This document shows, one piece after another, positions 6,073 to 53,551 of a DNA stretch of 53,551 nucleotides. A program made the translations under genes and the position numbers. This DNA is from a virus (taxonomy: Duplodnaviria; Heunggongvirae; Uroviricota; Caudoviricetes): the IMG/VR virus record IMGVR_UViG_2859805564_000008; one strand, given 5' to 3'. Within the stretch, counting starts at the first letter, position 1. Every line of letters begins with the position of its first letter. Under the pieces are notes generated by a model. It had not been told where the DNA came from, searched no databases, and saw only the letters and a list, made by a program, of their open reading frames with translations.

Positions 6073-6074
6073 GT

Positions 6075-6099: not shown

Positions 6100-6111
6100 C
6101 ATAAATATTGA

Positions 6112-6786: not shown

Positions 6787-6803
6787 AACGAAATTAAAAC
6801 CTT

Positions 6804-6820
6804 TGTACCGATAAGGTACA
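6804..6820. promoter_or_regulatory. operator-like dyad in the cI-cro intergenic region
   Basis: TGTACC-GATAA-GGTACA inverted repeat between the divergent repressor and cro genes. Confidence 0.45.
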
Positions 6821-6876
6821 AGTATCTTGAAGGTTCATTTCAATCATGTAATATGTATACCGGAGGTACATATTGT

Positions 6877-7077
6877 ATGAAAGCGTATTGGGACTCTTTA
6901 ACCAAAGAACAGCAGGGCGAGTTGGCCGGAAAAGTTGGCTCAACACCTGGCTACTTACGGCTGGTTTTCAATGGTTATAAAAAAGCCAGTTTTGTGCTGG
7001 CTAAAAAACTTGAGCAATGCACGTCAGGTGCAATTACGAAATCTGACTTAAGACCGGATATCTATCCGAAAGATTAA
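6877..7077 (+). CDS. cro: Cro-like HTH regulator
   Basis: 66-aa ORF MKAYWDSLTKEQQGELAGKVG... with GGAGG 9 nt upstream; track ORF begins earlier at 6772. Confidence 0.7.
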   Translation: MKAYWDSLTKEQQGELAGKVGSTPGYLRLVFNGYKKASFVLAKKLEQCTSGAITKSDLRPDIYPKD

Positions 7078-7108
7078 CAGAACACCTTCAATTTTTAACC
7101 ACAGAACG

Positions 7109-7672
7109 ATGAGGCTAACCGTGGGTAAGTATCACTGGAAAGTAGAAAAACAGCCTGAGTGGTACGTGAAAGCTGTCAGAAAAACTATCGCAGCGTTGCC
7201 GGGTGGTTACGCTGAAGCAGCTGACTGGCTGGATGTAACAGAGAACGCATTATTTAACCGCCTTCGTGCCTATGGCGATCAGATTTTCCCGCTGGGATGG
7301 GCAATGGTTTTACAGCGCGCGGCTGGCACTCACTACATTGCGGATGCTGTCGCACAGTCTGCTGGTGGGGTGTTCGTATCGCTTCCTGAAATTGAGGAAG
7401 TAGAGAACGCCGATATAAACCAGCGCCTGCTGGAAGTCATTGAACAGATCGGCAGTTATTCAAAACAGATTCGTTCAGCAATTGAAGACGGTGTAGTGGA
7501 ACCGAATGAGAAGACAGCAATTAACGACGAGCTGTACCTCTCAATTTCGAAGCTGCAGGAGCATGCAGCACTGGTCTACAAAATTTTTTGCATTTCAGAA
7601 AGTAATGACGCCCGCGAGTGTGCAGCTCCGGGCGCCGTGGCGTGTCGTGACTGTGGAGAAACTAACGCATGA
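7109..7672 (+). CDS. CII/YdaT-like regulatory protein (putative)
   Basis: 187-aa ORF immediately after cro, the position of CII-type regulators. Confidence 0.4.
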
Positions 7673-8007
7673 ACAGTTTAACAACACACTACCGTCGCTC
7701 GCAACTGATTGCGCTTCCTGTACCGGGTGGAAAAGCGAAGGTGGAGTATTGCTATGCAGTAAATGTACCAGGTGACAGGGAAATTGTAACCCACAGCTTT
7801 GCAGAGTGGGCTGTGGGTGATTTCAACCGGCAGAAGGAGACAGTCCTTTGCGACAAGTTAACCGCTGGTTCAAAGATCACTACGGAGTGCCCGTCAGAGT
7901 CATTCGTTGGGAGCCGGAAACACAACGGGTTATCTACCTCCGCGAAGGCTATGAGCATGAGTGCTTCAGCCCGCTCGAACAGTTTCGTCGTAAATTCAGG
8001 GAAGTAG
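7669..8007 (+). CDS. hypothetical protein, apparently frameshifted
   Basis: N-terminal part looks protein-like; the -1 frame from ~7821 to ~8027 continues with a plausible sequence (...[44 protein letters not shown]...). Confidence 0.3.
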
Positions 8008-8016
8008 AGGTCGGTC

Positions 8017-8958
8017 ATGAGCACTAAATTAACCGGCTATGTATGGGATGGTTGCGCTGCATCAGGCATGAAATTATCCAGCGTGGCAATTATGGCCCGC
8101 CTGGCTGATTTCAGTAATGACGAAGGTGTGTGCTGGCCATCAATTGAAACCATTGCCCGTCAGATTGGCGCGGGGATGAGTACCGTCAGAACGGCTATCG
8201 CACGGCTGGAAGCAGAAGGCTGGTTAACGCGTAAGGCGCGTCGCCAGGGTAACCGCAATGCGTCGAATGTTTATCAGCTTAACGTTGCGAAGCTTCAGGC
8301 AGCGGCATTTTCTCAACTGTCAGATTCTGACCCGTCAAAATCTGACGCATCAAAATCTGACACGTCAAAATTTGATGCGTCGAAATCTGGCAAAAAAGCG
8401 GGTTTTCACCCGTCAGAATCTGGCGGGGATCCGTCAGTAAAATCAAAACATGATCCGTCAGATAAAAAACCTTCTCGTCCGGACGCTTCGCAACCGGACA
8501 CGCAGACGGCTGAACAGGATTTTTTAACTCGCCATCCTGATGCGGTTGTATTCAGCCCTAAAAAGCGCCAGTGGGGAACGCAGGATGATTTGACCTGCGC
8601 ACAGTGGCTCTGGAAAAAAATCATTGCCCTGTACGAGCAGGCCGCCGAATGTGACGGCGAGGTGGTTCGTCCCAAAGAACCGAACTGGACAGCATGGGCA
8701 AACGAAATTCGCCTGATGTGTGTGCAGGATGGTCGTACTCACAAACAAATCTGCGAGATGTACAGCCGCGTCAGCCGCGAGCCGTTCTGGTGCCGTAACG
8801 TGCTCAGCCCGTCGAAGTTGCGGGAAAAATGGGATGAGCTTTCCCTGCGCTTATCGCCGTCCGTCAGCACGCACACAGAAAAACGTGAAGACCCGTACTT
8901 CAAAGCCAGTTACGACAACGTGGACTACAGCCAGATCCCGGCAGGATTCAGGGGGTGA
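8017..8958 (+). CDS. replication initiation protein (O-like, winged-helix N-terminus) containing the iteron array
   Basis: 313 aa; N-terminal HTH; in-gene iterons encode the SKSDASKSDTSKFDASKS repeat. Confidence 0.7.
   Translation: MSTKLTGYVWDGCAASGMKLSSVAIMARLADFSNDEGVCWPSIETIARQIGAGMSTVRTAIARLEAEGWLTRKARRQGNRNASNVYQLNVAKLQAAAFSQLSDSDPSKSDASKSDTSKFDASKSGKKAGFHPSESGGDPSVKSKHDPSDKKPSRPDASQPDTQTAEQDFLTRHPDAVVFSPKKRQWGTQDDLTCAQWLWKKIIALYEQAAECDGEVVRPKEPNWTAWANEIRLMCVQDGRTHKQICEMYSRVSREPFWCRNVLSPSKLREKWDELSLRLSPSVSTHTEKREDPYFKASYDNVDYSQIPAGFRG
8320..8470. repeat. iteron array (candidate ori) inside the replication gene
   Basis: At least 6 direct repeats of CCGTCA(A/G)AATCTGAC-like units. Confidence 0.65.
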
Positions 8959-9449
8959 TCATGAGTCTTTTGAATGACGTTCAGAAATTCATTGAAGCCC
9001 ATCCGGGCTGTACTTCCGGAGACATTGCGGATGCTTTTGCAGGTTACTCACGGCAGCGCGTTCTGCAGTCAGCAAGCAAGTTACGTCAGAGTGGGCGTGT
9101 GGCTCACCGTTGTGAAGGAGATACACACAGACATTTCCCGCGCCTGACTGAGAGAGCGCAGGATCCGGAACCACAACCAGTTCGTGAAACCAGACCTGTG
9201 CGCAATTTCTATGTCGGCACTAACGACCCGCGGGTGATTTTGTGCCTGACCCGCCAGGCGGAAGAACTGGAGTCCAGGGGCTTATACCGTCGAGCTGCAA
9301 CGGTGTGGATGGAGGCATTCCGTGAAAGCCACTCCCAGCCAGAACGAAACAATTTTCTGGCGCGTCGTGAGCAGTGTTTACGGAAAAGCAGCAAGCGCGC
9401 TGTATCGGGTGATGAGTGGTATCTGTCAGGGAATTACGTGGGGGCGTAA
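8955..9449 (+). CDS. PerC-like transcriptional regulator domain protein (putative)
   Basis: 164 aa; C-terminal GLYRRAATVWMEAF...RREQCLRK resembles PerC family; overlaps the neighbouring stop/start codons. Confidence 0.4.
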   Translation: MIMSLLNDVQKFIEAHPGCTSGDIADAFAGYSRQRVLQSASKLRQSGRVAHRCEGDTHRHFPRLTERAQDPEPQPVRETRPVRNFYVGTNDPRVILCLTRQAEELESRGLYRRAATVWMEAFRESHSQPERNNFLARREQCLRKSSKRAVSGDEWYLSGNYVGA

Positions 9450-9775
9450 TGACGACGTTAACTCAATGCCAGCAGCAGGTGCTGGATATGCTGATTTCTT
9501 ATCAGAAAGAGCGTGGCTTTCCGCCAACCAATCAGGAGGTGGCAACCATGCTGGGATACCGTTCAGTGAATGCAGCGGTAGAGCATCTTCGCGCACTGGA
9601 GAAAAAAGGCGTCATCACGATAAAGCGTGGCGTGGCCCGGGGGATAACGCTTCATACCGCGGTGAAGGACGACGACAGCGAGGCGGTCGGGATTATCCGC
9701 GCACTGCTTGCCGGTGAGGAAAACGCAAGGCTGCGTGCAACCCACTGGTTACATGAGAGGGGCCTGAAAGTATGA
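9449..9775 (+). CDS. LexA DNA-binding-domain-like protein (no peptidase domain)
   Basis: MTTLTQCQQQVLDMLISYQKERGFPPTNQEVATMLGYRSVNAAVEHLRALEKKGVITI resembles the LexA N-terminal winged helix. Confidence 0.6.
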   Translation: MTTLTQCQQQVLDMLISYQKERGFPPTNQEVATMLGYRSVNAAVEHLRALEKKGVITIKRGVARGITLHTAVKDDDSEAVGIIRALLAGEENARLRATHWLHERGLKV

Positions 9776-10161
9776 AGCTGATCCTGCCTTTTCCGCCCAG
9801 CGTGAACACGTACTGGCGACACCCCAACAAAGGGGCGTTTGCTGGTAAGAGCCTGATAAGCGCGGCGGGGCGCAAATTCCAGAGCGCGGCGTGTGCAGCA
9901 ATAGTTGAGCAGTTACGTCGTCTGCCAAAACCAACGTCGGCACCTGCTTCAGTGGAGATCGTGTTGTTTCCTCCGGATAACCGGATCCGCGATCTGGACA
10001 ACTATAACAAGGCGCTGTTTGACGCCCTGACCCACGCGGGTGTGTGGGAAGACGACAGTCAGGTGAAAAGAATGCTGGTGGAGTGGGGACCGGTTATCCC
10101 GGAAGGGAAGGTCGAGATCACTATCAGTAAGTACGAGAAAACGGCGGGTGCAGCCGCCTGA
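9772..10161 (+). CDS. rusA: RusA-family Holliday junction resolvase
   Basis: 129 aa with PPSVNTYWRH...DLDNYNKALFDALT pattern. Confidence 0.8.
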   Translation: MKLILPFPPSVNTYWRHPNKGAFAGKSLISAAGRKFQSAACAAIVEQLRRLPKPTSAPASVEIVLFPPDNRIRDLDNYNKALFDALTHAGVWEDDSQVKRMLVEWGPVIPEGKVEITISKYEKTAGAAA

Positions 10162-10180
10162 TTAAGAGGAGAAACGAAGT

Positions 10181-10978
10181 ATGAATAATCTGATGGTCAT
10201 TGATGGTATTGAAGTTCGTCGTGATGCTTATGGTCGTTACAGCCTGAACGATCTTCACAGGGCTGCCGGTTCTCTGGATAAGCATAAGCCTGCATTCTGG
10301 CTCCGCAATGAGCAAACTGAACGTTTAATAAGCGAGTTGCAGATTTGCAACTCGGTCAATATAGAGCCAGTTAACGTTATTCGTGGCGGAAATAACCAGG
10401 GGACGTATGTCTGCAAAGAACTGGTGTATGCCTATGCAATGTGGATAAGCCCGTCATTCCATCTTAAGGTGATCCGTACTTTCGACATGGTAACCAGCGC
10501 ACCGGAAAAATTATCCGGACAGGCTGCTGACAAGATGAAGGCTGGTGTGATTCTGCTGGACTTTATGCGCCGGGAGTTAAATCTGTCTAACTCATCTGTG
10601 CTTGGGGCCTGTCAGAAACTCCAGGAGGCTGTTGGCTTACCGAATCTGGCACCGCGTTATGCCATTGATGCTCCTGCTGACGCGCCTGATGGCTCAAGCC
10701 GCCCCACGCTGTCACTGAGTGCACTGCTGAAGCAGTATGGTATCCGCCTGACGGCTAATCAGGCATATCACCAGATGGCGAAGCTGGGGATCGTCGAACA
10801 GCGCGAACGATACAGCCGTACAGCGATTAACAACATCAAAAAATTCTGGTCGCTGACGGCGAAAGGCTGCATGTTCGGCAAGAACATCACCAGTCCTGCA
10901 AATCCGCGCGAGACGCAGCCGCATTTCTTCGAATCCCGATTCACTGAGCTGTTAAAGCTGCTCGATACCGTTCATTGA
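10181..10978 (+). CDS. KilA-N domain protein (antirepressor-like)
   Basis: N-terminal KilA-N-like region (YSLNDLHRA...ELVYAYAMWISPSFHL). Confidence 0.6.
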   Translation: MNNLMVIDGIEVRRDAYGRYSLNDLHRAAGSLDKHKPAFWLRNEQTERLISELQICNSVNIEPVNVIRGGNNQGTYVCKELVYAYAMWISPSFHLKVIRTFDMVTSAPEKLSGQAADKMKAGVILLDFMRRELNLSNSSVLGACQKLQEAVGLPNLAPRYAIDAPADAPDGSSRPTLSLSALLKQYGIRLTANQAYHQMAKLGIVEQRERYSRTAINNIKKFWSLTAKGCMFGKNITSPANPRETQPHFFESRFTELLKLLDTVH

Positions 10979-10979
10979 G

Positions 10980-11975
10980 GTGACCGTGAGAGCACTACTG
11001 ACCCCTGAAATTGCCCCGCGTATGGGGATCGTATTGTTCAGGCCAGGTTCAGAGCTGATGCCCCTGTTTATGCAGGGGCGTGTCCTGCTGGAGCCTGAGC
11101 CGGAGCGTTATTCATCTTTCGCCAGTGGTGCCGTTCCGGCGGCATCACAACCGCTGGCGGATGATCCTGCCGTTCGGGCCGTGTTCCGCGATGAGGCAGT
11201 GATCCGTCGTGCTGGTGGCGTGGAATGTCTTGAAAGCTGGTTACTTCGTGAAAAAGGCTGCCAGTGGCCTCATTCCGACTGGCACAGCGAGAACATGACC
11301 ACAATGCGACACGCTCCGGGCGCAATCCGTCTGTGCTGGCACTGCGATAACCAGCTGCGCGATCAGTTCACGGAACGGCTGGAATCAATGGCAACGGATA
11401 ACTGTGCCCGCTGGGTGTTGTCTGTTGTGCGTCGGGATCTCGGTTTTGATGACAGTCACGTTGTGACAATGCCGGAACTGTGCTGGTGGCTGGTTCGTAA
11501 TGACCTGGCGGATGCCTTACCGGAAAGTGCAGCCCGTAAGGCACTGAGATTACCGAAGCCTGTTGTGCCGTCTGTCACCCGGGAAAGTGACCTTGTTCCT
11601 TCGGTTCCTGCCACCAGCATCATCCAGGATAAGGCGAAAAAGGTGCTGGCGCTGAAAGTGGAGCCGGAGTCGCCGGAGTCTTTTATGTTACGCCCCAAAC
11701 GTCGCCGCTGGGTTAATGAAAAGTACACGCGCTGGGTTAAGACACAGCCGTGTGCATGTTGTGGAAAGCCTGCTGATGATCCCCACCACCTGATAGGTCA
11801 CGGTCAGGGTGGGATGGGTACAAAAGCGCATGACCTCTTTGTGTTGCCTTTGTGCAGAAAGCATCACGACGAGCTGCATGCGGATACCGTGGCATTTGAA
11901 GAGAAGTATGGCTCCCAGCTGGAGCTGATATTTCGTTTTATCGATCGTGCGCTGGCAATTGGCGTGCTGGCCTGA
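10980..11975 (+). CDS. DUF968-type nin-region protein with C-terminal HNH-like Cys/His motif
   Basis: GTG start; C-terminus CACCGKPADDPHHLIGHGQGGMGTKAHDLFVLPLCRKHHDELH. Confidence 0.6.
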   Translation: MTVRALLTPEIAPRMGIVLFRPGSELMPLFMQGRVLLEPEPERYSSFASGAVPAASQPLADDPAVRAVFRDEAVIRRAGGVECLESWLLREKGCQWPHSDWHSENMTTMRHAPGAIRLCWHCDNQLRDQFTERLESMATDNCARWVLSVVRRDLGFDDSHVVTMPELCWWLVRNDLADALPESAARKALRLPKPVVPSVTRESDLVPSVPATSIIQDKAKKVLALKVEPESPESFMLRPKRRRWVNEKYTRWVKTQPCACCGKPADDPHHLIGHGQGGMGTKAHDLFVLPLCRKHHDELHADTVAFEEKYGSQLELIFRFIDRALAIGVLA

Positions 11976-22359: not shown

Positions 22360-24318
22360 ATGCAGGCTGGTCACCAGAGTGACGCGGATATTTATATTTA
22401 TGACGAGATTGGTTTCTGGGGTGTTACAGCGAAGCAGTTTATCAGTGATCTGAATGCACTGGGCGATATCACCCATATTAATCTCCATATTAATTCACCG
22501 GGTGGCGATGTCTTTGAAGGCATCGCCATTTTTAATGCACTGAAAACACATGGTGCGTCCATTACCGTTTATGTCGACGGTGTGGCGGCGTCAATGGCGT
22601 CGGTCATTGCGATGGTGGGAAACCCGGTCATTATGCCGGAAAACACCTTCATGATGATTCATAAACCATTTGGCTTTACGGGCGGTGATGCGGAGGACAT
22701 GCGCACCTATGCCGACCTGCTCGATAAAGTTGAGGCGGTTCTGTTACCCGCTTATGCACAGAAAACCGGGAAAACCACCGATGAAATTGCTGCCATGCTG
22801 GCGGATGAGACCTGGATGTCTGGTGCCGAATGTCTGGCACATGGATTTGCTGATCAGGTAACGCCAGCCGTTAAGGCAATGGCATGTATTCAGTCAAAAC
22901 GTACAGAGGAATTTAAAAAGATGCCGGAATCCATTCGAAACATGATTACTCCGCCACGCAACAGTGCTCCACGCGTACAGGATGATGAACCTGCAGCCTC
23001 CCGGACGCCAGTGCAGGCAGCAGCACCCGTGGTGGATGAAAACAGCATCCGTGCGCAGGTACTGGCAGAGCAAAAAGCGCGTGTAAACGGTATTAATGAT
23101 CTGTTTGCCATGTTTGGCGGGCGTTATCAGACGCTGCAGGCTCAGTGTCTTGCCGATCCTGAGTGTTCGCTGGAGCAGGCCCGCGAAAAGCTGTTGAACG
23201 AGATGGGGCGCGAGTCCACGCCATCCAATAAAAATACACCGGCTCATATTTATGCTGGTAACGGTAATTTTGTGGGGGACGGGATTCGCCAGGCGCTGAT
23301 GGCGCGTGCCGGATTTGAAAAAACCGAACGTGATAATGTCTACAACGGGATGACCCTGCGTGAATATGCCCGTATGTCACTGACTGAACGGGGTATTGGG
23401 GTTTCCGGTTATAACCCGATGCAGATGGTCGGTGCGGCGTTCACCCACAGTACGTCTGACTTCGGTAATATTCTGCTGGATGTTGCGAACAAAGCCATTC
23501 TGCAGGGCTGGGAAGATGCCCCTGAAACCTATGAACAATGGACGCGGAAAGGTCAGTTGTCTGATTTTAAAATTGCCCATCGTGTGGGTATGGGGGGCTT
23601 CAGTGCTCTGCGTCAGGTGCGTGAAGGGGCGGAATATAAATACGTCACCACCGGAGATAAACAGGCCACTATTGCACTGGCGACCTATGGCGAGCTGTTC
23701 AGTATCACCCGTCAGGCCATTATCAATGATGATCTGAATATGCTGACCGATGTCCCGATGAAACTGGGCCGTGCGGCGAAATCCACTATTGCCGATCTGG
23801 TTTATGCCATTCTGACGTCTAACCCGAAAATCTCCACAGATAATGTAAGTCTGTTCGATAAAGCGAAACATGCAAACGTACTGGAGAGCGCTGCAATGGA
23901 CGTGGCATCGCTGGATAAAGCCCGCCAGTTGATGCGCGTTCAGAAAGAGGGGGAGCGTCATCTGAATATTCGTCCTGCGTTCGTACTGGTACCGACGGCG
24001 ATGGAGTCTGTTGCTAACCAGGTCATTCGCTCCTCAAGTGTCAAGGGGGCTGACATTAACGCCGGTATTATTAACCCGGTGAAAGATTTTGCGACCGTTA
24101 TTGCAGAGCCCCGTCTTGATGATAACAGCCAGACCACCTTCTACCTGGCTGCGTCAAAAGGCTCCGATACGATTGAAGTGGCTTATCTCAACGGTGTGGA
24201 TACGCCATATATTGATCAGATGGAGGGCTTCAGTGTGGATGGCGTGACAACGAAAGTGCGTATTGACGCCGGTGTCGCGCCAGTTGATCACCGCGGTCTG
24301 GTGAAATGTACGGCGTAA
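22360..24318 (+). CDS. prohead protease (ClpP/S14-like) - scaffold - major capsid fusion protein
   Basis: N-terminal ClpP-like motifs (INSPGGDVFEG, GVAASMASVI, MMIHKP), Ala/Pro/Gln-rich linker, ~400-aa capsid-like C-terminus; track ORF begins at 22099 inside the portal gene. Confidence 0.7.
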   Translation: MQAGHQSDADIYIYDEIGFWGVTAKQFISDLNALGDITHINLHINSPGGDVFEGIAIFNALKTHGASITVYVDGVAASMASVIAMVGNPVIMPENTFMMIHKPFGFTGGDAEDMRTYADLLDKVEAVLLPAYAQKTGKTTDEIAAMLADETWMSGAECLAHGFADQVTPAVKAMACIQSKRTEEFKKMPESIRNMITPPRNSAPRVQDDEPAASRTPVQAAAPVVDENSIRAQVLAEQKARVNGINDLFAMFGGRYQTLQAQCLADPECSLEQAREKLLNEMGRESTPSNKNTPAHIYAGNGNFVGDGIRQALMARAGFEKTERDNVYNGMTLREYARMSLTERGIGVSGYNPMQMVGAAFTHSTSDFGNILLDVANKAILQGWEDAPETYEQWTRKGQLSDFKIAHRVGMGGFSALRQVREGAEYKYVTTGDKQATIALATYGELFSITRQAIINDDLNMLTDVPMKLGRAAKSTIADLVYAILTSNPKISTDNVSLFDKAKHANVLESAAMDVASLDKARQLMRVQKEGERHLNIRPAFVLVPTAMESVANQVIRSSSVKGADINAGIINPVKDFATVIAEPRLDDNSQTTFYLAASKGSDTIEVAYLNGVDTPYIDQMEGFSVDGVTTKVRIDAGVAPVDHRGLVKCTA

Positions 24319-24342
24319 ACGTCGCAGACAACAACTCTGATG

Positions 24343-40100: not shown

Positions 40101-40709
40101 AAACTCGCAGCCGCTTATCCGTCAGGCGTGATCCCTGATATGCGTGGCTGGACGATTAAGGGCAAACCTGCCAGTGGTCGTGCCGTATTGTCTCAGGAAC
40201 AGGACGGCATTAAATCGCACACCCACAGCGCCAGCGCATCCAGTACGGATTTGGGGACGAAAACCACATCGTCGTTTGATTACGGCACTAAATCCACGAA
40301 TAACACCGGGGCGCATACGCACAGTCTGAGTGGCTCTACGGGGTCTGCCGGTGCTCATACTCATGGTAATGGTATTCGTTGGCCAGGAGGCGGCGGTTCT
40401 GCGTTAGCATTTTATGATGGCGGTGGGTTCACTTATGTCAAGGATTCACAGTATCAAGTAAGCCCGGGGACTTCTTCCAGTAGATCGTATTATCAACGTA
40501 TTCAGACACAGTCAGCAGGTGCTCATACCCACTCGCTGTCTGGTACTGCAGCAAGTTCTGGCGCACATGCACATACTGTAGGTATTGGTGCGCATACGCA
40601 CTCGGTTGCGATTGGCTCACATGGACACACCATCACCGTTAACGCTGCTGGTAACGCGGAAAACACCGTCAAAAACATCGCATTTAACTATATTGTGAGG
40701 CTTGCATAA
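37158..40709 (+). CDS. side tail fiber protein (Stf-like)
   Basis: 1183 aa; Stf-like N-terminus, ~330-aa Ala/Ser/Thr-rich repeat region, C-terminal His-containing repeats (GAHTHSLSG). Confidence 0.8.
37540..38560. repeat. GC-rich low-complexity coding repeat within the tail fiber gene
   Basis: Repeated ...AAKTSETNA.../...SASSAAS... units; produces long spurious ORFs in the other frames and on the opposite strand. Confidence 0.8.
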
Positions 40710-41293
40710 TGGCATTCAGAATGAGTGAACAAGCACGGACCATAAAAATTTATAATCTGCTGGCCGGAACTAATGAATTTATTGGTGAAGGTGATGCATA
40801 TATTCCGCCTCATACAGGTCTGCCAGCAAACAGTACCGATATTGCACCACCAGATATTCCTGCTGGCTTTGTGGCTGTTTTCAACAGTGATGAGGCATCG
40901 TGGCATCTCGTTGAAGACCATCGGGGTAAAACGGTTTATGACGTAGCGTCAGGGGACGAGTTATTTATTTCTGAACTCGGTCCGTTACCGGAAAATGTTA
41001 CCTGGTTATCGCCGGAAGGGGAGTTTCAGAAGTGGAACGGCACAGCCTGGGTGAAAGATGCAGAAGCAGAAAAACTGTTCCGGATCCGGGAGGCGGAAGA
41101 AACAAAAAACAGCCTGATGCAGGTAGCCAGCGAGCATATTGCGCCGCTTCAGGATGCTGCAGATCTGGAAATTGCAACGGAGGAAGAAACCTCATTGCTG
41201 GAAGCCTGGAAAAAGTATCGGGTGTTGCTGAACCGTGTTGATACATCAACTGCACCGGATATTGAGTGGCCAGAAGAACCAGACACCGTGTAA
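40709..41293 (+). CDS. tail fiber assembly protein (Tfa-like)
   Basis: 194 aa, overlaps the stf stop; N-terminus [17 protein letters not shown] typical of Tfa chaperones. Confidence 0.8.
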
Positions 41294-41362: not shown

Positions 41363-42181
<819 letters not shown>

Positions 42182-42542
42182 TCATTGCAAGGGCTCACAA
42201 CCAGTAGTGTTGAGAAAACCATCGGAGAAATGAGGCTAAGCCTTTGAATTTACATAGTACAAAAAAGATACTTTTCCTCATAATGTGAGCTAATTTTATG
42301 TTTCGTTTGATGATTGGACCGGTCTCGAAAACCGTAGACACATAGTATGCGTTAATTTATGAACAAACTACTTGTCTGCTGTTTTTCTGTCATTAGTCGT
42401 ATATAGAATGATTCTCTATGCCTAACAAAGCATCACCAGTGCTAGATTACGTTGTAGTCACTGTTTAAATATCCAGATAAAACATTTCCTTCTGGGTTGA
42501 ATGAGTGATAAAGTTTCACCCATTAGACCCCTTGGAGGAATT

Positions 42543-43976
42543 ATGTCTGAATTTGAAGTGTTGGCACAGCATCTGCTGAAGGAAGCCGAGGCGGAAGAAA
42601 AGTTGCGACAGGAAAATGATAAAAAGCTTATCGAGAAAGTGCTGGAAATCTATGATCAGAAGTATGTGGCTGAATTACTGAGAAAAGTCGGAAAAAATGA
42701 GTGGAGCCGTGAAACCATTAACCGCTGGATTAATGGCAAGTGTTTACCAAAATCGTTGACTTCAGTAGAAGAGTCTCTTCTGCGTAAGATGCTACCAGAA
42801 CCACCTGCAAACCATCCGGAATATGCTTTCCGCTTCATTGACTTATTTGCTGGAATTGGAGGGATACGGAAAGGTTTTGAGGCCATTGGAGGCCAGTGTG
42901 TTTTTACCAGTGAATGGAATAAAGATGCTGTGCGTACATACAAGGCCAACTGGTTTAACGATGAACAGGTGCATAAATTCAATCTCGATATTCGGGAAGT
43001 CACGCTGAGTGATAAAACCGATGTATTGGAAACGGATGCTTATGCATATATTGATGAGCATGTGCCGGATCATGATGTGCTTCTTGCGGGGTTCCCGTGC
43101 CAGCCATTTAGCCTTGCTGGTGTTAGTAAGAAAAACTCACTTGGTCGTGCGCATGGTTTTGAATGTGAAGCACAAGGAACACTTTTTTTTGACGTGGCAC
43201 GTATTATACGAGCAAAAAAACCGGCAATTTTTGTGCTGGAAAATGTCAAAAATCTGAAGAGCCATGATAAGGGTAAAACTTTCAAAGTCATTATGGAGAC
43301 CCTTGACGAGCTGGGCTACGAAGTTGCCGATGCTGCAGAAATGGGAAAAAACGATCCAAAGATTATCGATGGGAAGCATTTTTTGCCTCAGCATCGTGAA
43401 CGCATTGTTCTGGTCGGATTTAGACGAGATCTGAATATTCACAAGGGGTTTACCTTGCGTGATATCAGTCGTTTTTATCCGGAACACCGCCCATCATTTG
43501 GTGAATTGCTGGAGCCTGTAGTCGACAGTAAATATATACTTACGCCAAAACTATGGGAGTACCTTTATAACTACGCCAAAAAGCATGCAGCCAAGGGGAA
43601 TGGTTTTGGCTTTGGGTTGGTCAATCCTGAGAATAAGGAAAGCATTGCACGCACACTTTCTGCCAGATATCACAAAGACGGATCAGAAATTCTTATTGAT
43701 CGTGGTTGGGATATGGCAACGGGAGAGGCTGACTTTATGAATGAGAGTAATCAGGCTCGTCGACCACGCAGGCTGACTCCCCGAGAGTGCGCACGCCTTA
43801 TGGGATTTGAAAAACCTGGAGGGAAACCATTCCGTATTCCGGTTTCAGATACTCAGTCATATCGGCAGTTCGGTAACTCAGTTGTGGTGCCAGTATTTGA
43901 AGCTGTTGCCAGACTTCTGGAACCCTATATCCTCAAAGCTGTTTCTGCTGATGCTGGTAAGACTGGGCAGCCTTGA
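42543..43976 (+). CDS. ecoRIIM: C5-cytosine DNA methyltransferase, Dcm/M.EcoRII type (CCWGG)
   Basis: [12 protein letters not shown] (motif I), GFPCQPFS (motif IV), ENV, QFGNSV; close to M.EcoRII/Dcm throughout; GGAGG RBS before MSEFEV; track ORF starts at 42501. Confidence 0.95.
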
Positions 43977-44010: not shown

Positions 44011-45225
44011 CTATGATAGTTCAGCGTAAAGCTCTATCAGCTCAGTAATGAATGCTCCGAGCGTTATTAATTCTTCTCTAACTGCTTCTGGGTATTTTTT
44101 ATGTAAAGTTGATGGTACAACGAGTCTGACACCCGCATCTTTCATTTCTCGGTATTGTGCTGAAGAAACACCTTCTTGCAGTGTAAATAAATGTACCTGA
44201 TGGATTTTATCTGCTTCATTCAGTATCTGACGCCAGCGATCTTTGCAGGTGGTCTTTACTGCCAGCATACGTAAGTTTTCTACAGGAAATTCAACGTTAT
44301 GATATGCCTCTGCTGAAGGAAACAGGAAATCTGGTTTTTTATTACCTTCAGTTACTGCCTGAGTGGAGAAATGCCGTAGTCCGTGCTCGATAAAAAGCTT
44401 CTCTAGGTGAAGTTCAAGTGATTTGCCTGCCCTTGATTTACGTCGATTACTGACAGAGTTGGCTAATGCAATAAACTCATCTACAGAATCGAATCCTTTC
44501 TTAATAATATCAAGAACATGTAATTCCTCGACGAGTAGAAAAATATCATACTCGACACGCCGACGGTCAATCAGTTGCTCATCTGGATCCTTGGAGTTTT
44601 TAGCATAATGGCCAGCAGCATATTGAATAATTTCGTTTCCAGAAGGAAAACGCTTCTTCCAGTCTTCAGGAATAACATATTTATGATTTACTGGAGTTTG
44701 CTGAAGAGACAATCCGCCCAAAATTTGTCCGGCAGGGCCGGAAATTAGGGTTCCAGGTATGATTTCGCCAATAGCAGACTCGATGATATCCTCTTCATCG
44801 GGATTGACGCAGACCCATATATCTACCTCGGAACAGTCAGTGTTCTGTTCGTTTAACCTGAAAGCAAGAATTGTGAGGGCTCCTGTATTTTCAGGGTTCT
44901 GTAATGGACTTCCTCTCCCCCAGCGCGTAATTCTTTTTTCGTTTCGGGTCTTACCAAAATAACGGTTGTTGTAATAAATTGCGCGTGCTTGGGTATCAGG
45001 GCAATCATGGGATGATACATGCGCAGTAAGGAAGACTGAAGGGTTCAGTTCGCGAGTATGATTGATAGATGGAAAAAGCTTTTCAACGATATTTGAGGGG
45101 ATATAAAGTCCGACCTGATGGCCACCTGTTGCGCCTGTGTCGTTTGCAGAAAGGCGTTTGATGTAGATAAAGTAATTCCCGCTTGCGATATCAAGCAGCC
45201 AGTTATGAAAAACCGACATATACAT
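44011..45225 (-). CDS. ecoRIIR: type IIE restriction endonuclease, EcoRII type
   Basis: 404-aa ORF (MYMSVFHNWLLD...) highly similar to my recollection of R.EcoRII, convergent with the methylase gene; start may be the internal Met at 45219. Confidence 0.9.
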   Translation of the reverse strand: MYMSVFHNWLLDIASGNYFIYIKRLSANDTGATGGHQVGLYIPSNIVEKLFPSINHTRELNPSVFLTAHVSSHDCPDTQARAIYYNNRYFGKTRNEKRITRWGRGSPLQNPENTGALTILAFRLNEQNTDCSEVDIWVCVNPDEEDIIESAIGEIIPGTLISGPAGQILGGLSLQQTPVNHKYVIPEDWKKRFPSGNEIIQYAAGHYAKNSKDPDEQLIDRRRVEYDIFLLVEELHVLDIIKKGFDSVDEFIALANSVSNRRKSRAGKSLELHLEKLFIEHGLRHFSTQAVTEGNKKPDFLFPSAEAYHNVEFPVENLRMLAVKTTCKDRWRQILNEADKIHQVHLFTLQEGVSSAQYREMKDAGVRLVVPSTLHKKYPEAVREELITLGAFITELIELYAELS

Positions 45226-45290
45226 CCCTTTGTTAACATACAGTCAGGGTTAACATTTTTCCATAGTTATAGATAAGCGGCTAGGAACTT

Positions 45291-45326
45291 AAGGGAAAAA
45301 CAAAAAGCCCGCATAAGCGGGCTTTT
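45291..45326 (-). terminator. minus-strand intrinsic terminator upstream of the endonuclease gene
   Basis: AAAGCCCGC-ATAA-GCGGGCTTT hairpin followed on the minus strand by UUUUUGUUUUU. Confidence 0.6.
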
Positions 45327-45453
45327 GTGTCACTCGAGAGCCGCGGCTCCTTTGCGTATCCTTTTTTGTCTCCTCACCGTCTGGTCGGTGTCCTGCTGAG
45401 ACTGCTAACTTCCTGTTTTTGTTGGTGTTGTCCTTACACCGTCCAATCATGAT

Positions 45454-45478
45454 TGGTGGAGCTGGCGGGAGTTGAAAC
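45454..45478 (-). other. tmRNA (ssrA) 3'-end-like fragment
   Basis: Minus strand reads CGGTTTCAACTCCCGCCAGCTCCACCA, one mismatch to the E. coli ssrA 3' terminus as I recall it; no upstream tmRNA body. Confidence 0.45.
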
Positions 45479-45818
45479 CGTAGCCACGTCGTATGCAAGA
45501 ACGTGCTACGACTGGCTGGTGAACTTCCGATAGTGCGAGTATTGAATGATTTCCAACTGTTATCGATTTTGCGTATTTTTTGCATGAGAGGATTTTTACC
45601 TCCTCCCACCGATCCTCCATGGCTTTACGCCAGTGTCTCTAGGACTGCTATGTGCCAAAAGCAGAACTTGCTTACATTGTGCTATGTTAATTTGTTGGGA
45701 GCAGGTCACAAAGTCCAGCCAGGACGAAAATAAATAATTGCCATACATTTAGTGTTGATTATTTCGGGATTGTTCATCTATTCTGATTGTATCAGCGAGC
45801 AGGCCGGAGTCACTCTTC

Positions 45819-46888: not shown

Positions 46889-46938
46889 ATTCGTAATGCG
46901 AAGGTCGTAGGTTCGACTCCTATTATCGGCACCATTAA
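46889..46938. repeat. attR core (50-bp direct repeat of the thrW 3' half)
   Basis: Identical to 1399-1448; not preceded by the tRNA 5' half. Confidence 0.85.
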
Positions 46939-47539
46939 GAAAATTAATAACTTAGCTTAACTTCTCTAAGAAATTGTATCTTCTGTTATCACTTACAAAC
47001 GCCTATACGTTGTTATGGGCTTTGGTAGTGTAACACGTATGGGCGAGTAGTTCCCAGGCTCAACCTCGTAACAAGTTCCTTTGAAGCTGGAAGACGTGCC
47101 ACCGTCTCTAAACCTTCTACCAAAACTCTTAGCAAGATGTTCCACACCTGGCGCGGTGTCCAATGATGCTACACGTCGTGAGACGTTGCAGAGGATAAAC
47201 AGGCTAAATGATGGGAAGAGTTTTAAGTGCAATAGTGGATTAAAGCCCACCTCTTCAAAACCTAACTTGATCGGGAAAGAATCAAGCTCTAGCACGGTTT
47301 CGTCCACCGGAGTACAACGGGTGCCTGATAAGAGAAGAACTGCTAAGACTTCATAGCTTTTGTGAAAAAGCCCTTTTTAGTGGATACGCCTACGGCGCTT
47401 ATTTTTTGGTATAACCATCAAAGGCGCTTTATGGCTCCTATTGTCTTGAAAATGTATCTTTACTTGTATTGTGTTTTATGCGTAGTCTCCCTGTGTAGTA
47501 TGTAACTTGTTAATTTTCATATGAATACAGAGGCACACG

Positions 47540-47698
47540 ATGAAAAACATTGCAGCAATCAAACGTAATAACCGCAAGATTCACGCTCGTAAGTTCCTGT
47601 CTACGCCAGAAGGAAAAGCCTGGCTAGAGCGTAAACAGAGAGAGAACGAAGAAAGAAAACTCCTTAGTGAGTTGAAATGGCTTAGAGAGGATTTCTGA
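47540..47698 (+). CDS. small basic hypothetical protein (52 aa)
   Basis: ATG preceded by GAGG; MKNIAAIKRNNRKIHARKFLSTPEGKAWLERKQRENEERKLLSELKWLREDF; below the ORF-track length cut-off. Confidence 0.3.
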   Translation: MKNIAAIKRNNRKIHARKFLSTPEGKAWLERKQRENEERKLLSELKWLREDF

Positions 47699-48689
47699 AA
47701 ATCTCCAGAACGCAACAGGACGCATTCTAACGCTGTTTTCATTACTCGGTATAGGGATAGGTGATGTGTGTTTAATGCGTCTGTGCGCTTGTTTTGTGCC
47801 TTATTTTGCATTTTCATAATGCGGAAGAGAACACGGAAAACCTTAAAATTAATTATTGGGGTATTTAAGGCTATTTTCAGGTGATTTAAGGGTATTAAAC
47901 TTGATTTAATTGATTAAAATATAAACAGATAATTATGTATCTTATTGATTTATAAGGTTATTTTTAAGTAAAGGTAAATAAAAAATAAATAGCCATAAAT
48001 AGCTATAAATACATCTTAATACCTATATCCCTTCCCTTATGGCTAGATTGCGAGAGGTGCTTAACGCGATTTTCAGCGCCCCCCGATCTGGAAAATCCAG
48101 AATCCCCAAATATCAGCAAGGAATTTTCTTGCGTAATCAACATCGTTTTTACCTATTAAATCATTACACAGAAAGCCTTTCTGTAATGTCTCTCACTAAA
48201 CTTTCACTAAACACGAGAATGATCGGTTTTATGTCGGATCAGATGCTAGAAACAGCACCACGTCTCACAAGGGCTGTAAGCGATGAAACCAGTGTTTATG
48301 CGGGTGCAGGTCAAAATATAGGCCAAAATCCATTTAACATAATAAATGTTATATGTGCTAAGGAACACATATAACGCCTTGAATTGATGTATCAGTGGAA
48401 AAGTGATGGATTTTTTACGTAGGAGCACGAAAGGGCTTCTATTGACTTTTGTGTGCTATGAAATATAATTAAAGTTTTTTGTTTTTATTGTGTGATGTGG
48501 TGGGTTACACAGGGGAATAGATTAAATGGTGTTCTGTTTATACAGGTTTATTTGTTAGATCAACAATTTGGCATTTCTAAACAGATGTTTGAACGTTGCC
48601 AAATGTCTTGACAACACAAGAAAAGGGCTTGCTATGCCAGGCATTATGAGGTGTACTGGCAATAGCGGACACTACCATTTGTTCTTTTT

Positions 48690-49508
48690 TTAAGCAGCCA
48701 TCTGATGATATTTTTCCCTGAAGGCTGCCGGGGAGATATTCCCCAGACGAGAGTGACGACGCTGACGATTGTAGAAAATCTCAATGTATTCCCGTATTAC
48801 TGAGATGGCTTCATCCCGGTTATTAAAACGATAGTGGCTCAGGCTCTCATTTTTCAGCGTTCCCCAGAAGCTTTCCATCGGAGCGTTGTCGTAACAGTTA
48901 CCTTTACGCGACATTGATGTTTTCAGACCAGACTGCTCCTGTATGACCCGGTAATCGTATGCGCAGTACTGTGAACCTCGATCAGAGTGGTGGATTAGCC
49001 CGGCAGGTGGGCGCTGGCTCCTGAGCGCCATAAACAGGGCTTTACCTGTCAGCTCTTTTGTCATGCGCTCTCCCATGGCGTAGCCGACAATTTCGCACGT
49101 ATAAACATCTTTGATGCCAGCGAGGTACAACCATCCCTCCTGTGTGGCAACATACGTCAGGTCCGCCACCCAGACCTGATTTGGTGCTGTAGGAGCGAAC
49201 GTCTGGTTCAGCAGATTTGGCGCAACTGGCAGATTGTGGTTCGAGTTCGTAGTCGCTCTGAACTTGCGTTTCTGCTTACAGCGTAGCCTTAGCTCCTTAC
49301 GAAGACGTGCCAGTCGGTCACGACCAACAATGATGCCATTCTCTGCCAGCTCCGTCTGGAGCCGCCGGGTTCCATATGTTTCGCGAGTGCGGATATGTGC
49401 CACCTTAATCTCCAGTTTTAGCCGCTCATCACTTTGTTTTCTGTCTGAGGGTTCATGCTGTACCCAGTTGTAATAACCGCTCCTGGATACACCAAATACC
49501 TGACACAT
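48690..49508 (-). CDS. IS3-family transposase OrfB (DDE catalytic domain)
   Basis: 272 aa with integrase-core motifs (VWVADLTY...HSDRGSQY...NAPMESF). Confidence 0.85.
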   Translation of the reverse strand: MCQVFGVSRSGYYNWVQHEPSDRKQSDERLKLEIKVAHIRTRETYGTRRLQTELAENGIIVGRDRLARLRKELRLRCKQKRKFRATTNSNHNLPVAPNLLNQTFAPTAPNQVWVADLTYVATQEGWLYLAGIKDVYTCEIVGYAMGERMTKELTGKALFMALRSQRPPAGLIHHSDRGSQYCAYDYRVIQEQSGLKTSMSRKGNCYDNAPMESFWGTLKNESLSHYRFNNRDEAISVIREYIEIFYNRQRRHSRLGNISPAAFREKYHQMAA

Positions 49509-49543
49509 CGCTTCAATGGGAAATTGTTGTCGCCATTGTTCGA

Positions 49544-49846
49544 TTAACGCGTATTTTTCAGCGACTCCTGTGCAAAATACGCTGTTGCTTTTTTTAATAT
49601 ATCTCGCTCAAGGCGAGCTTCATTTAACGCCTTACGCAGTTGCAGAATTTCAGATTCCAGTTCAGCCACCGTGCGGGAACCAGGAGTACCGAGCCCTTTT
49701 CTGGCGGCGGTAACCCATTGTCCTAAAGTGCCTTCAGGAAGAGATAATCGGGAAGCGCCTTCACTGATCGAAAGTTGATTTTCAGGAACCGTTCTGACAG
49801 CTTCGGCTTTGAACTCTTTAGAGTAACGTTGGGTTTTTCTGCTCAT
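49544..49846 (-). CDS. IS3-family transposase OrfA (HTH, leucine zipper)
   Basis: 100 aa with HTH and LxxxxxxL heptads, upstream of OrfB in a different frame. Confidence 0.85.
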   Translation of the reverse strand: MSRKTQRYSKEFKAEAVRTVPENQLSISEGASRLSLPEGTLGQWVTAARKGLGTPGSRTVAELESEILQLRKALNEARLERDILKKATAYFAQESLKNTR

Positions 49847-50384
49847 TATTAGCTCCTTCTGATGCCATTCTATTTCAGGAAGGAGTGTCCGTTAAACTCA
49901 GGCTACCTCATTACACGAAATAAGGCTATAAAAACAAAATAAATTTTAAAATTTGCACAAACGAGAAACTCGTTCAGAAACAAACAGAACAATTTTTAGC
50001 CAACAATTTCTGATGGTGCTCTGTAAGCCGCATTACACAAGGCTTTGCGAAAGTGATGTAAAAGTGAAGAAAGTAAGAATTGAACTTTTAAGCTACTTTT
50101 CATTGGATTTTTTAGTAGGGAATTACACAGGGAATAGAGAGCATTATTCTATGATTTACACAGGGAATATAGGGGGATTATGGCACACACATAGAAAGAC
50201 ATTACACAGAGTGCTATGTGACAAATGGATGTAACGAGAGGTTACATTCATTTATCTGAAATGCTCTCTGTAAGAAAGTTGGTAGTAACGATATATTACA
50301 TAGACTAATTATTGAATGTAACGATATTACACATCGGTAGTAACGATACGTTACATCGGAAGATGATTGGATGTAACGGTAGCT

Positions 50385-51825
50385 CACAGTGAACTAGGGG
50401 TAGGTCATAGTGAACTACCCCCACAGAATTCTGTTACCCCTATCAAGTCTGATACCCCTATCAAAACTGATACCCGATAAGTATAAATAACACCTAAATA
50501 GCTGCGCGGAATAGTAGATCACTTTGAGGGAACTTAGCCCGGATTGTGCGATCTGATCAATCGCCAAATCAAAACAAATCACCAACCGGACTGAGCAATG
50601 CCGATCATAGCACCAATTTCCCGTGACGAACGACGCCTGATGCAGAAAGCCATCCATAAAACACACGATAAAAATTATGCCCGCAGACTGACTGCCATGC
50701 TGATGCTGCACCGGGGCGACCGTGTCAGCGACGTTGCCAGAACGCTCTGCTGCGCCCGTTCCTCTGTTGGACGCTGGATTAACTGGTTCACGCAGTCGGG
50801 TGTTGAGGGACTGAAATCATTACCTGCCGGGCGTGCCCGTCGCTGGCCGTTTGAGCATATCTGCACACTGTTACGTGAGCTGGTAAAACATTCTCCCGGC
50901 GACTTTGGCTACCAGCGTTCACGCTGGAGTACAGAACTGCTGGCAATAAAAATCAATGAGATAACCGGTTGCCAGTTAAATGCCGGAACCGTTCGCCGCT
51001 GGTTGCCGTCTGCGGGGATTGTGTGGCGAAGGGCTGCGCCAACTCTGCGTATCCGTGACCCGCATAAAGATGAAAAGATGGCAGCAATCCATAAAGCACT
51101 GGACGAATGCAGCGCAGAGCATCCGGTCTTTTATGAAGATGAAGTGGATATCCATCTTAATCCCAAAATCGGTGCGGACTGGCAACTGCGCGGACAGCAA
51201 AAACGGGTGGTCACGCCGGGACAGAATGAAAAATATTATCTGGCCGGAGCGCTGCACAGCGGGACAGGTAAAGTCAGCTGTGTGGGCGGCAACAGCAAAA
51301 GTTCGGCGCTGTTCATCAGCCTGCTGAAGCGGCTTAAAGCGACATACCGTCGGGCGAAAACCATCACGCTGATCGTGGACAACTACATTATCCACAAAAG
51401 CCGGGAAACACAGAGCTGGCTGAAGGAGAACCCGAAGTTCAGGGTCATTTATCAGCCGGTTTACTCGCCATGGGTGAATCATGTTGAACGGCTATGGCAG
51501 GCACTTCACGACACAATAACGCGTAATCATCAGTGCAGCTCAATGTGGCAACTGTTGAAAAAAGTTCGCCATTTTATGGAAACCGTCAGCCCATTCCCCG
51601 GAGGCAAACATGGGCTGGCAAAAGTGTAGCGGTATTAAGCGCAGCTATTTAGGAAATGATTTCCGATCTATTTAGGAAGTAACCTAGGAAGTGGTTTCCT
51701 ACCTACTTAGGAAATGACTTCCACCAATACTATAATTAAATACTATAAATAATATTCTTTATACTATATAGGTCACTGTGAACTAGGGGGGTAGTTCACT
51801 ATGAGCTAGGGGGTAGGTCACTGTG
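50385..51825 (+). mobile_element. IS630-family insertion sequence (putative; ends approximate)
   Basis: Transposase flanked by ~40-bp imperfect inverted repeats beginning CACAGTGA; right end abuts IS1. Confidence 0.55.
50598..51629 (+). CDS. IS630-family transposase
   Basis: 343 aa, N-terminal HTH, C-terminal DDE-type region. Confidence 0.85.
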   Translation: MPIIAPISRDERRLMQKAIHKTHDKNYARRLTAMLMLHRGDRVSDVARTLCCARSSVGRWINWFTQSGVEGLKSLPAGRARRWPFEHICTLLRELVKHSPGDFGYQRSRWSTELLAIKINEITGCQLNAGTVRRWLPSAGIVWRRAAPTLRIRDPHKDEKMAAIHKALDECSAEHPVFYEDEVDIHLNPKIGADWQLRGQQKRVVTPGQNEKYYLAGALHSGTGKVSCVGGNSKSSALFISLLKRLKATYRRAKTITLIVDNYIIHKSRETQSWLKENPKFRVIYQPVYSPWVNHVERLWQALHDTITRNHQCSSMWQLLKKVRHFMETVSPFPGGKHGLAKV

Positions 51826-51880
51826 GGTGATGCTGCCAACTTACTGATTTAGTGTATGATGGTGTTTTTGAGGTGCTCCA

Positions 51881-52156
51881 GTGGCTTCTGTTTCTATCAG
51901 CTGTCCCTCCTGTTCAGCTACTGACGGGGTGGTGCGTAACGGCAAAAGCACTGCCGGACATCAGCGCTATCTCTGCTCTCACTGCCGTAAAACATGGCAA
52001 CTGCAGTTCACTTACACCGCTTCTCAACCCGGTACGCACCAGAAAATCATTGATATGGCCATGAATGGCGTTGGATGCCGGGCAACTGCACGCATTATGG
52101 GCGTTGGCCTCAACACGATTTTACGTCACTTAAAAAACTCAGGCCGCAGTCGGTAA
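51881..52156 (+). CDS. insA: IS1 InsA
   Basis: 91 aa, [42 protein letters not shown]... Confidence 0.95.
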
Positions 52157-52578
52157 CCTCGCGCATACAGCCGGGCAGTGACGTCATCGTCTGCGCGGAA
52201 ATGGACGAACAGTGGGGCTATGTCGGGGCTAAATCGCGCCAGCGCTGGCTGTTTTACGCGTATGACAGTCTCCGGAAGACGGTTGTTGCGCACGTATTCG
52301 GTGAACGCACTATGGCGACGCTGGGGCGTCTTATGAGCCTGCTGTCACCCTTTGACGTGGTGATATGGATGACGGATGGCTGGCCGCTGTATGAATCCCG
52401 CCTGAAGGGAAAGCTGCACGTAATCAGCAAGCGATATACGCAGCGAATTGAGCGGCATAACCTGAATCTGAGGCAGCACCTGGCACGGCTGGGACGGAAG
52501 TCGCTGTCGTTCTCAAAATCGGTGGAGCTGCATGACAAAGTCATCGGGCATTATCTGAACATAAAACACTATCAATAA
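52075..52578 (+). CDS. insB: IS1 InsB (expressed as InsAB' by -1 frameshift)
   Basis: Overlapping -1 frame ORF with IS1 InsB sequence. Confidence 0.9.
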
Positions 52579-52579
52579 G

Positions 52580-53551
52580 TTGGAGTCATTACCCAAGATT
52601 GCTCAACAGAAAGCTAAAACAGAAAAGCAGAATCAAAGAGCACAAGCTGCCGCAGCAAGAGCACAGGCAAGGCAACAGCAACAAATAGCAGCACGTAAAG
52701 AGAAAGCAGAATTAAAACTCCTTGATGTATCAAGCTCTATCAGTGCAATGCACCGTCTCTCTGTAGCGGAACAATACAAAGCTATTGCACAGGCTAGAGA
52801 GATAGCAAAACAATATGAGCAAGGGGCTATCAGCCTGGCGCGTATGAATAGTCAGATGAAACGCCTACAACAGCAACAACGTAAGATTAATGGCAACAGA
52901 AAAGCTCAATTTGCCCCCGTTAAGGGAGGATCAGGGAATTCCGCCACGATGGGCGCTCTGTTATTTGGAGGCGCTACGGCTGCTGCTGGCGTGATGGCTG
53001 TTAGTAAAACCTCTGAATTTATGGCTAACAGCTTTGCTAATGCTGAAACAGAAGGGGAGCTAATCCAACGTGCAAGGCTTGGTGGAGTTGATTACAACTT
53101 ACTTAATAATCTTGAGCGTTGGGCGTATGACAACGGGATCGATAGCCTCCAGGGTGATCCGGGACGCAGAAAAATACTAGATGCCATCGGTAAAGATGTA
53201 AAGGAACGCGCTACCAAAAGCTATGACGAGGCTGAATATGTAGTTGATAAGAAAACAGGGAAAGGCATATGGAAGGGCGGTGATTCTGGTATTAACACTT
53301 TAATGAATGAAGGATTCTTAACTAAAAAGGATTTGAAAGACTTTGCCAATAACTCTGCTGGTTTAATTTCAAAAGCTGTCAACGGAATGGTGAAAAAGGG
53401 CTATACCGACGCACAGATCGGTAGTCGTCTGGAAGATTTAGCGGACGACCTCCTCTTAACTTCTAAATATTGGCAAAGATCAGCCAGAGAGGTGCAGGCA
53501 AGCATTACCCAGCAAAAAGCCGCCGGACAATGGCTAACAGAAACACAGTAG
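52580..53551 (+). pseudogene. hypothetical gene, likely 5'-disrupted by IS1
   Basis: Reading frame opens inside the IS1 right end with no ATG for ~57 codons; Gln/Ala-rich coiled-coil region then hydrophobic Gly-rich segment; product not recognised. Confidence 0.35.

Follow-up and report, generated by a model that had tools for sequence, protein, structure and literature searches.

The thrW prophage and its cargo genes

The window, i.e., the whole stretch of viral DNA analyzed in this study (53,551 nt; IMG/VR record IMGVR_UViG_2859805564_000008), contains a prophage that is bracketed by two exact 50-nt copies of a thrW repeat (repeat family D4) at 1399–1448 and 46889–46938. The presence of this repeat on both sides bears out an earlier model-made reading of the letters (the sequence-only reading), which had placed the locus of interest inside a thrW prophage. 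The homology of the window to strain E6474 stops at 46935. The features that are needed below are listed in the order of the window.

1399–1448, plus strand: thrW attL core, located inside the tRNA-Thr(CGT) gene at 1369–1444 (ARAGORN); repeat D4, the att site that is actually used
1459–2622, minus strand: tyrosine integrase adjoining thrW (Pfam Phage_integrase), not of the ssrA type
41363–42136, minus strand: LEM-3-like GIY-YIG domain protein (Pfam PF22945; RefSeq annotation)
42501–43976, plus strand: C5 cytosine DNA methyltransferase, Dcm-like (Pfam DNA_methylase and DNA_meth_N)
44011–45225, minus strand: EcoRII-type restriction endonuclease (Pfam EcoRII-N and EcoRII-C; RefSeq WP_000110239.1), the first cargo gene past the ssrA-like block
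45299–45453, minus strand: copy of the ssrA-ypjA spacer (P'/B'-like arm) defined by alignment, which terminates in an intrinsic terminator hairpin
45443–45456, no strand: perfect 14-bp palindrome CCAATCATGATTGG, native and directly 3' of ssrA
45454–45480, minus strand: ssrA 3'-terminal 27-mer, comprising the 3' part of the T-arm, the 3' strand of the acceptor and CCA (att core)
45481–45677, minus strand: U, a conserved non-coding sequence of the lambda b-region type that adjoins the core upstream
46889–46938, plus strand: thrW attR core, the displaced 3' end of thrW; repeat D4

The integrase of the window shares only 25% identity over 180 aa with the ssrA-type integrase, and tblastn revealed no other homologue of the latter in the window.

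Some further features were observed elsewhere. Rfam gives a match to IS009 (224.7 bits) at 41052–41250 on the plus strand, inside the tail-fibre-assembly ORF at 40709–41293. To the right of the thrW attR, the stretch 46939–53551 is rich in IS elements. By reading the translations, we named two IS3-like transposase ORFs (48690–49846, minus strand), a DDE-type transposase ORF resembling IS630 (50598–51629) and two IS1 InsA/InsB-like ORFs (51881–52578). Past this stretch, a tape-measure-like ORF runs off the end of the window. At the same position right of attR, strain E6474 carries a P4-like element with a retron reverse transcriptase.

A copy of the ssrA 3' end and its native spacer

On the minus strand, positions 45454–45480 read CGGTTTCAACTCCCGCCAGCTCCACCA, which equals the last 27 nt of the annotated E. 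coli ssrA gene of an unoccupied locus (L016) with a single mismatch (T for G). In alignment with ssrA of three loci (L016, L004, and L014), 23 bases of this att core are exact and 27 match with the one mismatch. The minus-strand context is ...GCATACGACGTGGCTA CGGTTTCAACTCCCGCCAGCTCCACCA ATCATGATTGG ACGG.... When up to three mismatches are allowed, the 27-mer has one match in the whole window; 100 dinucleotide shuffles gave none. The sequence-only reading had pointed out this one-mismatch resemblance, and it stands against the annotated gene. The span then given (45443–45478) was correctly located, but its upper coordinate is 2 nt short, as the 27-mer ends at 45480. Likewise, the adjacent palindrome is indeed perfect over 14 bp, but it does not follow the terminal CCA; it overlaps this triplet by 3 nt. 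CCAATCATGATTGG is identical in the unoccupied ssrA locus of strain KKa019, the CP4-57 attR of K-12, the attP of phage LLS and the attL of the sibling prophage described below. It is the native ssrA 3' trailer and therefore no independent phage feature; a role as phage operator or att feature was rejected because the same trailer is found in unoccupied loci.

The similarity is not limited to the 27-mer that was described at first. It continues for about 155 nt past the CCA to 45299, and the complete block of 182 nt (45299–45480) is a copy of the ssrA 3' end together with the entire native ssrA-ypjA spacer, including the intrinsic terminator hairpin that a terminator scan located at 45303–45326. 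A megablast comparison of the region with 5,426 complete E. coli genomes gave matches from 45480 to about 45299 in about 5,000 cases. Most matches lie under or beside an annotated ssrA, and the best match is 90–95% identical in most genomes. The resemblance to ssrA, for which a BLASTN-type check had been proposed, is thus significant beyond chance (E about 4e-64 versus ssrA loci), with a likeness to the unoccupied chromosomal locus of about 92% over 179 nt of ssrA 3' end and spacer. Over the core and arm, the identity amounts to 92.2% with the native locus of KKa019, where the gene order is smpB-ssrA-160 nt-ypjA, 99.5% with the sibling attL, 91.6% with the LLS attP and 94.9% with E. ruysiae. 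The counterpart of the block in K-12 is the attR of CP4-57, which lies between ypjF and ypjA at the far end of this prophage. The exact junction between U and the core was not found in the species-representative genomes. A second scan of this set yielded only the ssrA loci of Escherichia sp. and E. ruysiae along with one contaminant contig, and therefore no donor is identifiable.

No tmRNA body accompanies the 27-mer, as the sequence-only reading had also stated. ARAGORN predicts only the tRNA-Thr at 1369–1444 and no tmRNA in the window, Rfam gives no tmRNA at the gathering threshold or at E ≤ 10, and the 5' end of ssrA is absent from the window at up to three mismatches, leaving the acceptor strand without a partner. 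A tmRNA or tRNA gene was rejected on these grounds, with only the last 27 nt of ssrA being present. The block might still act as a functional RNA, either as a truncated tmRNA or tRNA-like domain or as an sRNA employing the 3' end of tmRNA. The fold of the region is good (z = -3.96), the adjoining hairpin of U shows compensatory changes, and a weak Rfam match to CssrB lies on the opposite strand (23.6 bits versus a gathering score of 76). However, the good fold is accounted for by the U hairpin, the native palindrome and the terminator, and the ssrA-derived bases carry indels in other copies. Together with the missing tmRNA and tRNA predictions and the unpaired acceptor strand, this makes a functional RNA extremely improbable. 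A literature search on CssrB returned nothing relevant.

The closest relatives of the block were found in prophages that are integrated into ssrA itself. Strain 2014C-3655 has a full ssrA and, behind it, a spacer that is 99.3% identical to 45200–45480 and forms the attL of a lambdoid ssrA prophage. Past this attL, the same EcoRII, Dcm and GIY-YIG proteins are encoded, followed by tail-fibre genes. The window prophage and this sibling are collinear in blocks of 84–99% identity over most of 3166–45480. One end of the alignment coincides exactly with the core edge and the other falls in the early-left genes, the int/xis/att module being the sole difference between both prophages. The far end of the sibling comprises the integrase of this prophage, two accessory genes and another copy of the core. 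This integrase is 87% identical to that of phage LLS (PQ299149.1), whose GenBank record lists a ‘tmRNA pseudogene’ of 39 nt and attP, after which this spacer arm follows as well. Both the 99.3% identity to the attL of an ssrA prophage and the LLS annotation of the same block as attP support the att remnant that had been suspected from the sequence. With a 541-nt probe, the arrangement ssrA-spacer-EcoRII was detected in 131 of the 5,426 complete E. coli genomes (at least 80% covered), and an equivalent probe for U-core-spacer-EcoRII is covered in 112 genomes. A search of other genomes for the cassette beside ssrA, as had been advised, thus places the EcoRII cassette directly behind an intact ssrA in 131 of them. 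These genomes, of which 2014C-3655 is an example, tie the EcoRII/GIY-YIG cargo to an ssrA-targeting element, as was suggested at first, either direction of descent being possible.

The same comparisons bear on the idea that the block is host DNA which was captured directly and recently from ssrA by aberrant excision, in the manner of specialised transduction. The extent of the block would suit such an event, since its boundaries are exactly those of the ssrA 3' end plus the whole ssrA-ypjA spacer as far as the terminator. However, identity reaches only about 92% with the native E. coli flank, versus 99–100% with the arms of sibling prophages. The free phage LLS also has this arm, and neither ypjA sequence nor any part of ssrA beyond the 27 nt was brought along. 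We thus consider a recent capture very unlikely. An ancient capture that founded the phage arm is plausible; it concerns the origin of the arm and is no rival explanation for the window locus. The present identities point to a window copy that nests inside the phage arms and not among the E. coli flanks.

The fusion of U with the core and its distribution

The sequence upstream of the core is U, which is 87% identical to lambda 24162–24340, a part of the b region between ea31 and ea47. Bases 45486–45581 of U also share 83% identity over 96 nt with the chromosomal ykgJ-ecpE spacer (L017, 11649–11744). U is thus common to the lambda b region, hundreds of prophages and this chromosomal spacer. 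It ends in a hairpin (CCGCAGCACG...CGTG(T)CTGCGG, then TTTC) that is located at 45478–45511 in the window, where it overlaps the first CGG of the 27-mer, and its pairing is kept through compensatory changes between copies. Past the hairpin, at least five continuations other than the ssrA core are found in other loci, including pinE and the lambda sequence toward ea47, which makes the hairpin a recurrent module boundary. U usually ends in GCGGTTTCA, a sequence similar to the T-arm of ssrA, GCGGGTTCA, and the fusion lies within the look-alike GCGG[T/G]TTCA. The single mismatch of the 27-mer (T) is the base typical of U ends in other contexts.

Several observations concern U and its annotation. 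A plus-strand ORF over U (45503–45733) has no PHROG match, and the substitutions of U relative to lambda looked partly synonymous on the plus strand when the alignment was inspected by eye. In identical genomes, U carries the RefSeq annotation of an 81-nt ‘capsid protein’ pseudogene (45497–45577, plus strand), and so does the ykgJ-ecpE spacer; this annotation is probably an artefact that spread from an ORF with a wrong name. Fragments such as those described here should be named neither tmRNA genes nor ‘capsid protein’ pseudogenes. The 30-kb ‘plasmid’ pHNAH212872-4 was considered as a circular phage and rejected as a chromosome-like fragment; it revealed the ykgJ-ecpE similarity. The chromosomal ykgJ-ecpE spacer (L017, 11560–11760) resembles the 3' end of a phage DinI-like gene plus U (L010, 7754–8090); the 96-bp att sequence may thus have a chromosomal ‘origin’ that is a phage remnant in its own right. 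In strain G5, a lone GIY-YIG gene is present between two copies of the U hairpin (L007, 6180 and 7205), the second of which abuts the pinE stop codon; this looks like a cassette inserted at the hairpin.

The junction of U and the core is widespread. It was detected in 453 of the 5,426 complete E. coli genomes (about 8%; a 201-nt probe across the junction, covered), in 18 IMG/VR contigs and in 17 metagenome contigs. Besides the window, lambdoid thrW prophages with this junction are found in E6474 and VTB97585v, and that of strain A2 is combined with pin-type tail genes. LWY6 carries the junction in a dusA prophage, and E28 in a prophage beside sitABCD. The fused U-core-arm copies differ by 11–17% from the window (83–89% identity). 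Those of LWY6 and E28 have indels and substitutions in the ssrA-derived bases, and a perfect 28-nt match to ssrA is kept in 13 of 35 environmental or viral contigs. The spacer is followed by at least nine unrelated genes across 34 loci, EcoRII being the neighbor in 17 of these. The block therefore borders a variable slot, which is a slot for variable cargo or defence genes. In addition to EcoRII, the genes past the block encode proteins of 232, 502, 365, 227 and 641 aa, and a DUF4145 protein (RefSeq annotation) is also among them. The 227-aa protein starts with MCGRF... and presumably resembles SRAP/YedK-type peptidases.

A probable orphaned attachment site and its relation to known systems

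Taken together, 45299–45480 is likely an orphaned attachment-site piece of LLS-like lambdoid phages that integrate into ssrA. It would consist of the att core, i.e., the last 23–27 nt of the tmRNA gene, and of the phage arm beside the cargo genes. As the comparison shows, the cognate integrase of the sibling phages recombines the core with ssrA, whereby the phage copy replaces the 3' end of the gene and supplies a look-alike trailer and terminator, so that tmRNA is still made. The EcoRII/Dcm/GIY-YIG cargo thereby lands directly behind ssrA.

In the window, the ssrA core is single and has no direct repeat at the prophage ends, the bracketing repeat being thrW. Of the attP of ssrA-integrating LLS-like phages, we find the core and the cargo-side arm, and neither the integrase-side arm nor the cognate integrase. 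The core is preceded by U and not by the AT-rich arm common to LLS and 2014C-3655. An intact attP with U as the second arm of the sibling site was also considered and rejected, as the arms of the sibling and LLS differ from U. The window phage has an integrase/att module of the thrW type; the second half of the ssrA attP is missing, as is the matching integrase, and the core is fused to U. This fusion could have been formed when GCGG[T/G]TTCA served as a short homology for recombination, or when an integrase acted on the look-alike end of U as a secondary site. It presumably arose once, some time ago, and would since have spread by homologous exchange via U and the arm.

As the U-core-P' form is old and widespread (453 genomes), both directions of descent, from an ssrA phage to a thrW phage and the reverse, are possible, and the cargo could have come from either of the two parents. 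The fused form is present in several types of prophages and sites (thrW, dusA, next to sit), so the window phage need not have been an ssrA phage. It could have received the cargo and the relic by homologous exchange. The block today would most likely be no more than a terminator or insulator ahead of EcoRII and a homology patch shared with ssrA loci and ssrA prophages.

An orphaned att relic is an ordinary by-product of phage module swapping. Such a relic records how lambdoid phages switch their integration site yet keep their late genes and cargo, with the old att half staying as a scar beside the cargo. The scar dates the R-M/GIY-YIG cassette and links it to ssrA phages, with 131 genomes having the cassette at ssrA and 112 at the scar. 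Moreover, a 180-bp look-alike of the ssrA flank constitutes homology between the ssrA locus and prophages elsewhere, which could drive rearrangements and module exchange.

A related explanation assigns a present function to the block, namely that of an attB-in-prophage: a host-derived ssrA site (core and flank) serving as a landing pad for ssrA-specific elements. Its users would be P4/CP4-57-like satellites or LLS-like phages, giving rise to nested or hitch-hiking elements. Because the arm is equally near to the host flank (92%) and to LLS (91.6%), a host attB copy and a phage attP arm are inseparable by sequence alone. Nested elements are known at attB-in-PP sites derived from yecE, ykgJ/ecpE and ompW, and the published sequences of these sites are 81–87% identical to the chromosomal loci and cluster (PMC8112680). 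The chromosomal flank homology of the window block (92% over 179 nt) is of the same character as that of the published sites. The block also abuts the 96-nt ykgJ-ecpE-like stretch (83%), which fits both the description of attB-in-PP_2 and the clustering given there (PMC8112680). Based on this description only (96 bp, ykgJ/ecpE-like), U would correspond to attB-in-PP_2 (PMC8112680).

The landing pad is further favored by copies with a perfect T-stem (GCGGG), which are common, and by one contig, L025 (IMGVR_UViG_2698536560_000011). L025 contains accessory genes, U and the core, and the CCA is followed by a CP4-57-like attL flank. Past the core, at 2032–11072, it encodes an integrase 60% identical to CP4-57 IntA along with Psu, Delta and Ash, and thus a P4-like satellite. 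The flank of this type of satellite is found at the true ssrA in many complete genomes. On the other hand, L025 is a single short contig of a draft assembly, and this one unverified case could be a rare real insertion or an assembly join across a 23-nt repeat. The junction U-core-satellite is present in 0 of the 5,426 complete genomes and in 0 of the 17 metagenome contigs, all 17 of which are unoccupied. The window copy has two changes in the 5' half of the T-stem (ACGGT versus GCGGG), the LWY6 and E28 copies have a decayed core, and the ssrA sequence 5' of the T-arm is missing. We therefore regard a functional landing pad as unlikely, although less so than a recent capture. The perfect 28-nt copies and the one contig with a satellite at the core indicate that the site may not be fully inert, and L025 gives a hint that a P4-like satellite may still be captured at the relic. 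With the same low probability, U-ssrA'-spacer would be a fourth, ssrA-derived attB-in-prophage, acting as a decoy of the tmRNA gene end in about 8% of E. coli genomes. If so, this decoy would lie beside a ykgJ/ecpE-type att at the edge of a defence-cargo slot, and satellites and LLS-like phages would insert into the prophage and not into the chromosome. A scar that is still a target would extend ‘prophage-in-prophage’ to the busiest integration site of E. coli.

The preferred reading as an orphaned piece of an ssrA attachment site can be compared with four known systems. The first are the prophages with an attL at ssrA, e.g., that of 2014C-3655, whose core, arm, EcoRII promoter and cargo are 99% alike and which are collinear with the window over about 42 kb. 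In these prophages, the core belongs to an uninterrupted full ssrA of 363 nt, and the prophage is closed by another copy of the core, whereas the window core is single, joined to U and located inside a thrW prophage.

The attP of phage LLS shares the ssrA 3' core and the arm of about 155 nt with its palindrome and terminator (91.6%), and LLS and the window also have the yfdP/yfdQ/yfdR-type early region in common. In LLS, the ssrA-like sequence measures 39 nt, an arm of the phage's own lies upstream and the cognate integrase is encoded 0.9 kb away. In contrast, the window has 23–27 ssrA-like nucleotides, U in place of the upstream arm and no cognate integrase.

The attR of CP4-57 in K-12 resembles the window in that a displaced ssrA 3' end is followed by the native spacer (and ypjA in K-12). 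It differs in being a true attR at ssrA with a paired attL, and its core is degenerate in another way. This core (L015, about 5000–5030) reads AATTCAGACTCCGCCAGC-CCACCA. Its degenerate state is consistent with reports on tmRNA rescue, according to which the excision of CP4-57 affects tmRNA-dependent ribosome rescue (PMC10107115).

The fourth system comprises attB-in-PP_1, 2 and 3, which are described as chromosome-like att sequences with flank homology lying side by side at lambdoid accessory ends (Nakamura et al., 2021; PMC8112680). The window block is likewise a chromosome-like att sequence with flank homology inside a prophage. The paper describes no ssrA-derived member (Nakamura et al., 2021; PMC8112680). 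The use of attB-in-PP sites as targets is shown there by many nested prophages (PMC8112680), as opposed to one unverified contig for the ssrA relic. The relic belongs to a well-known kind of sequence, that of phage-borne tRNA and tmRNA 3' ends and of chromosome-like att sequences in the accessory regions of prophages.
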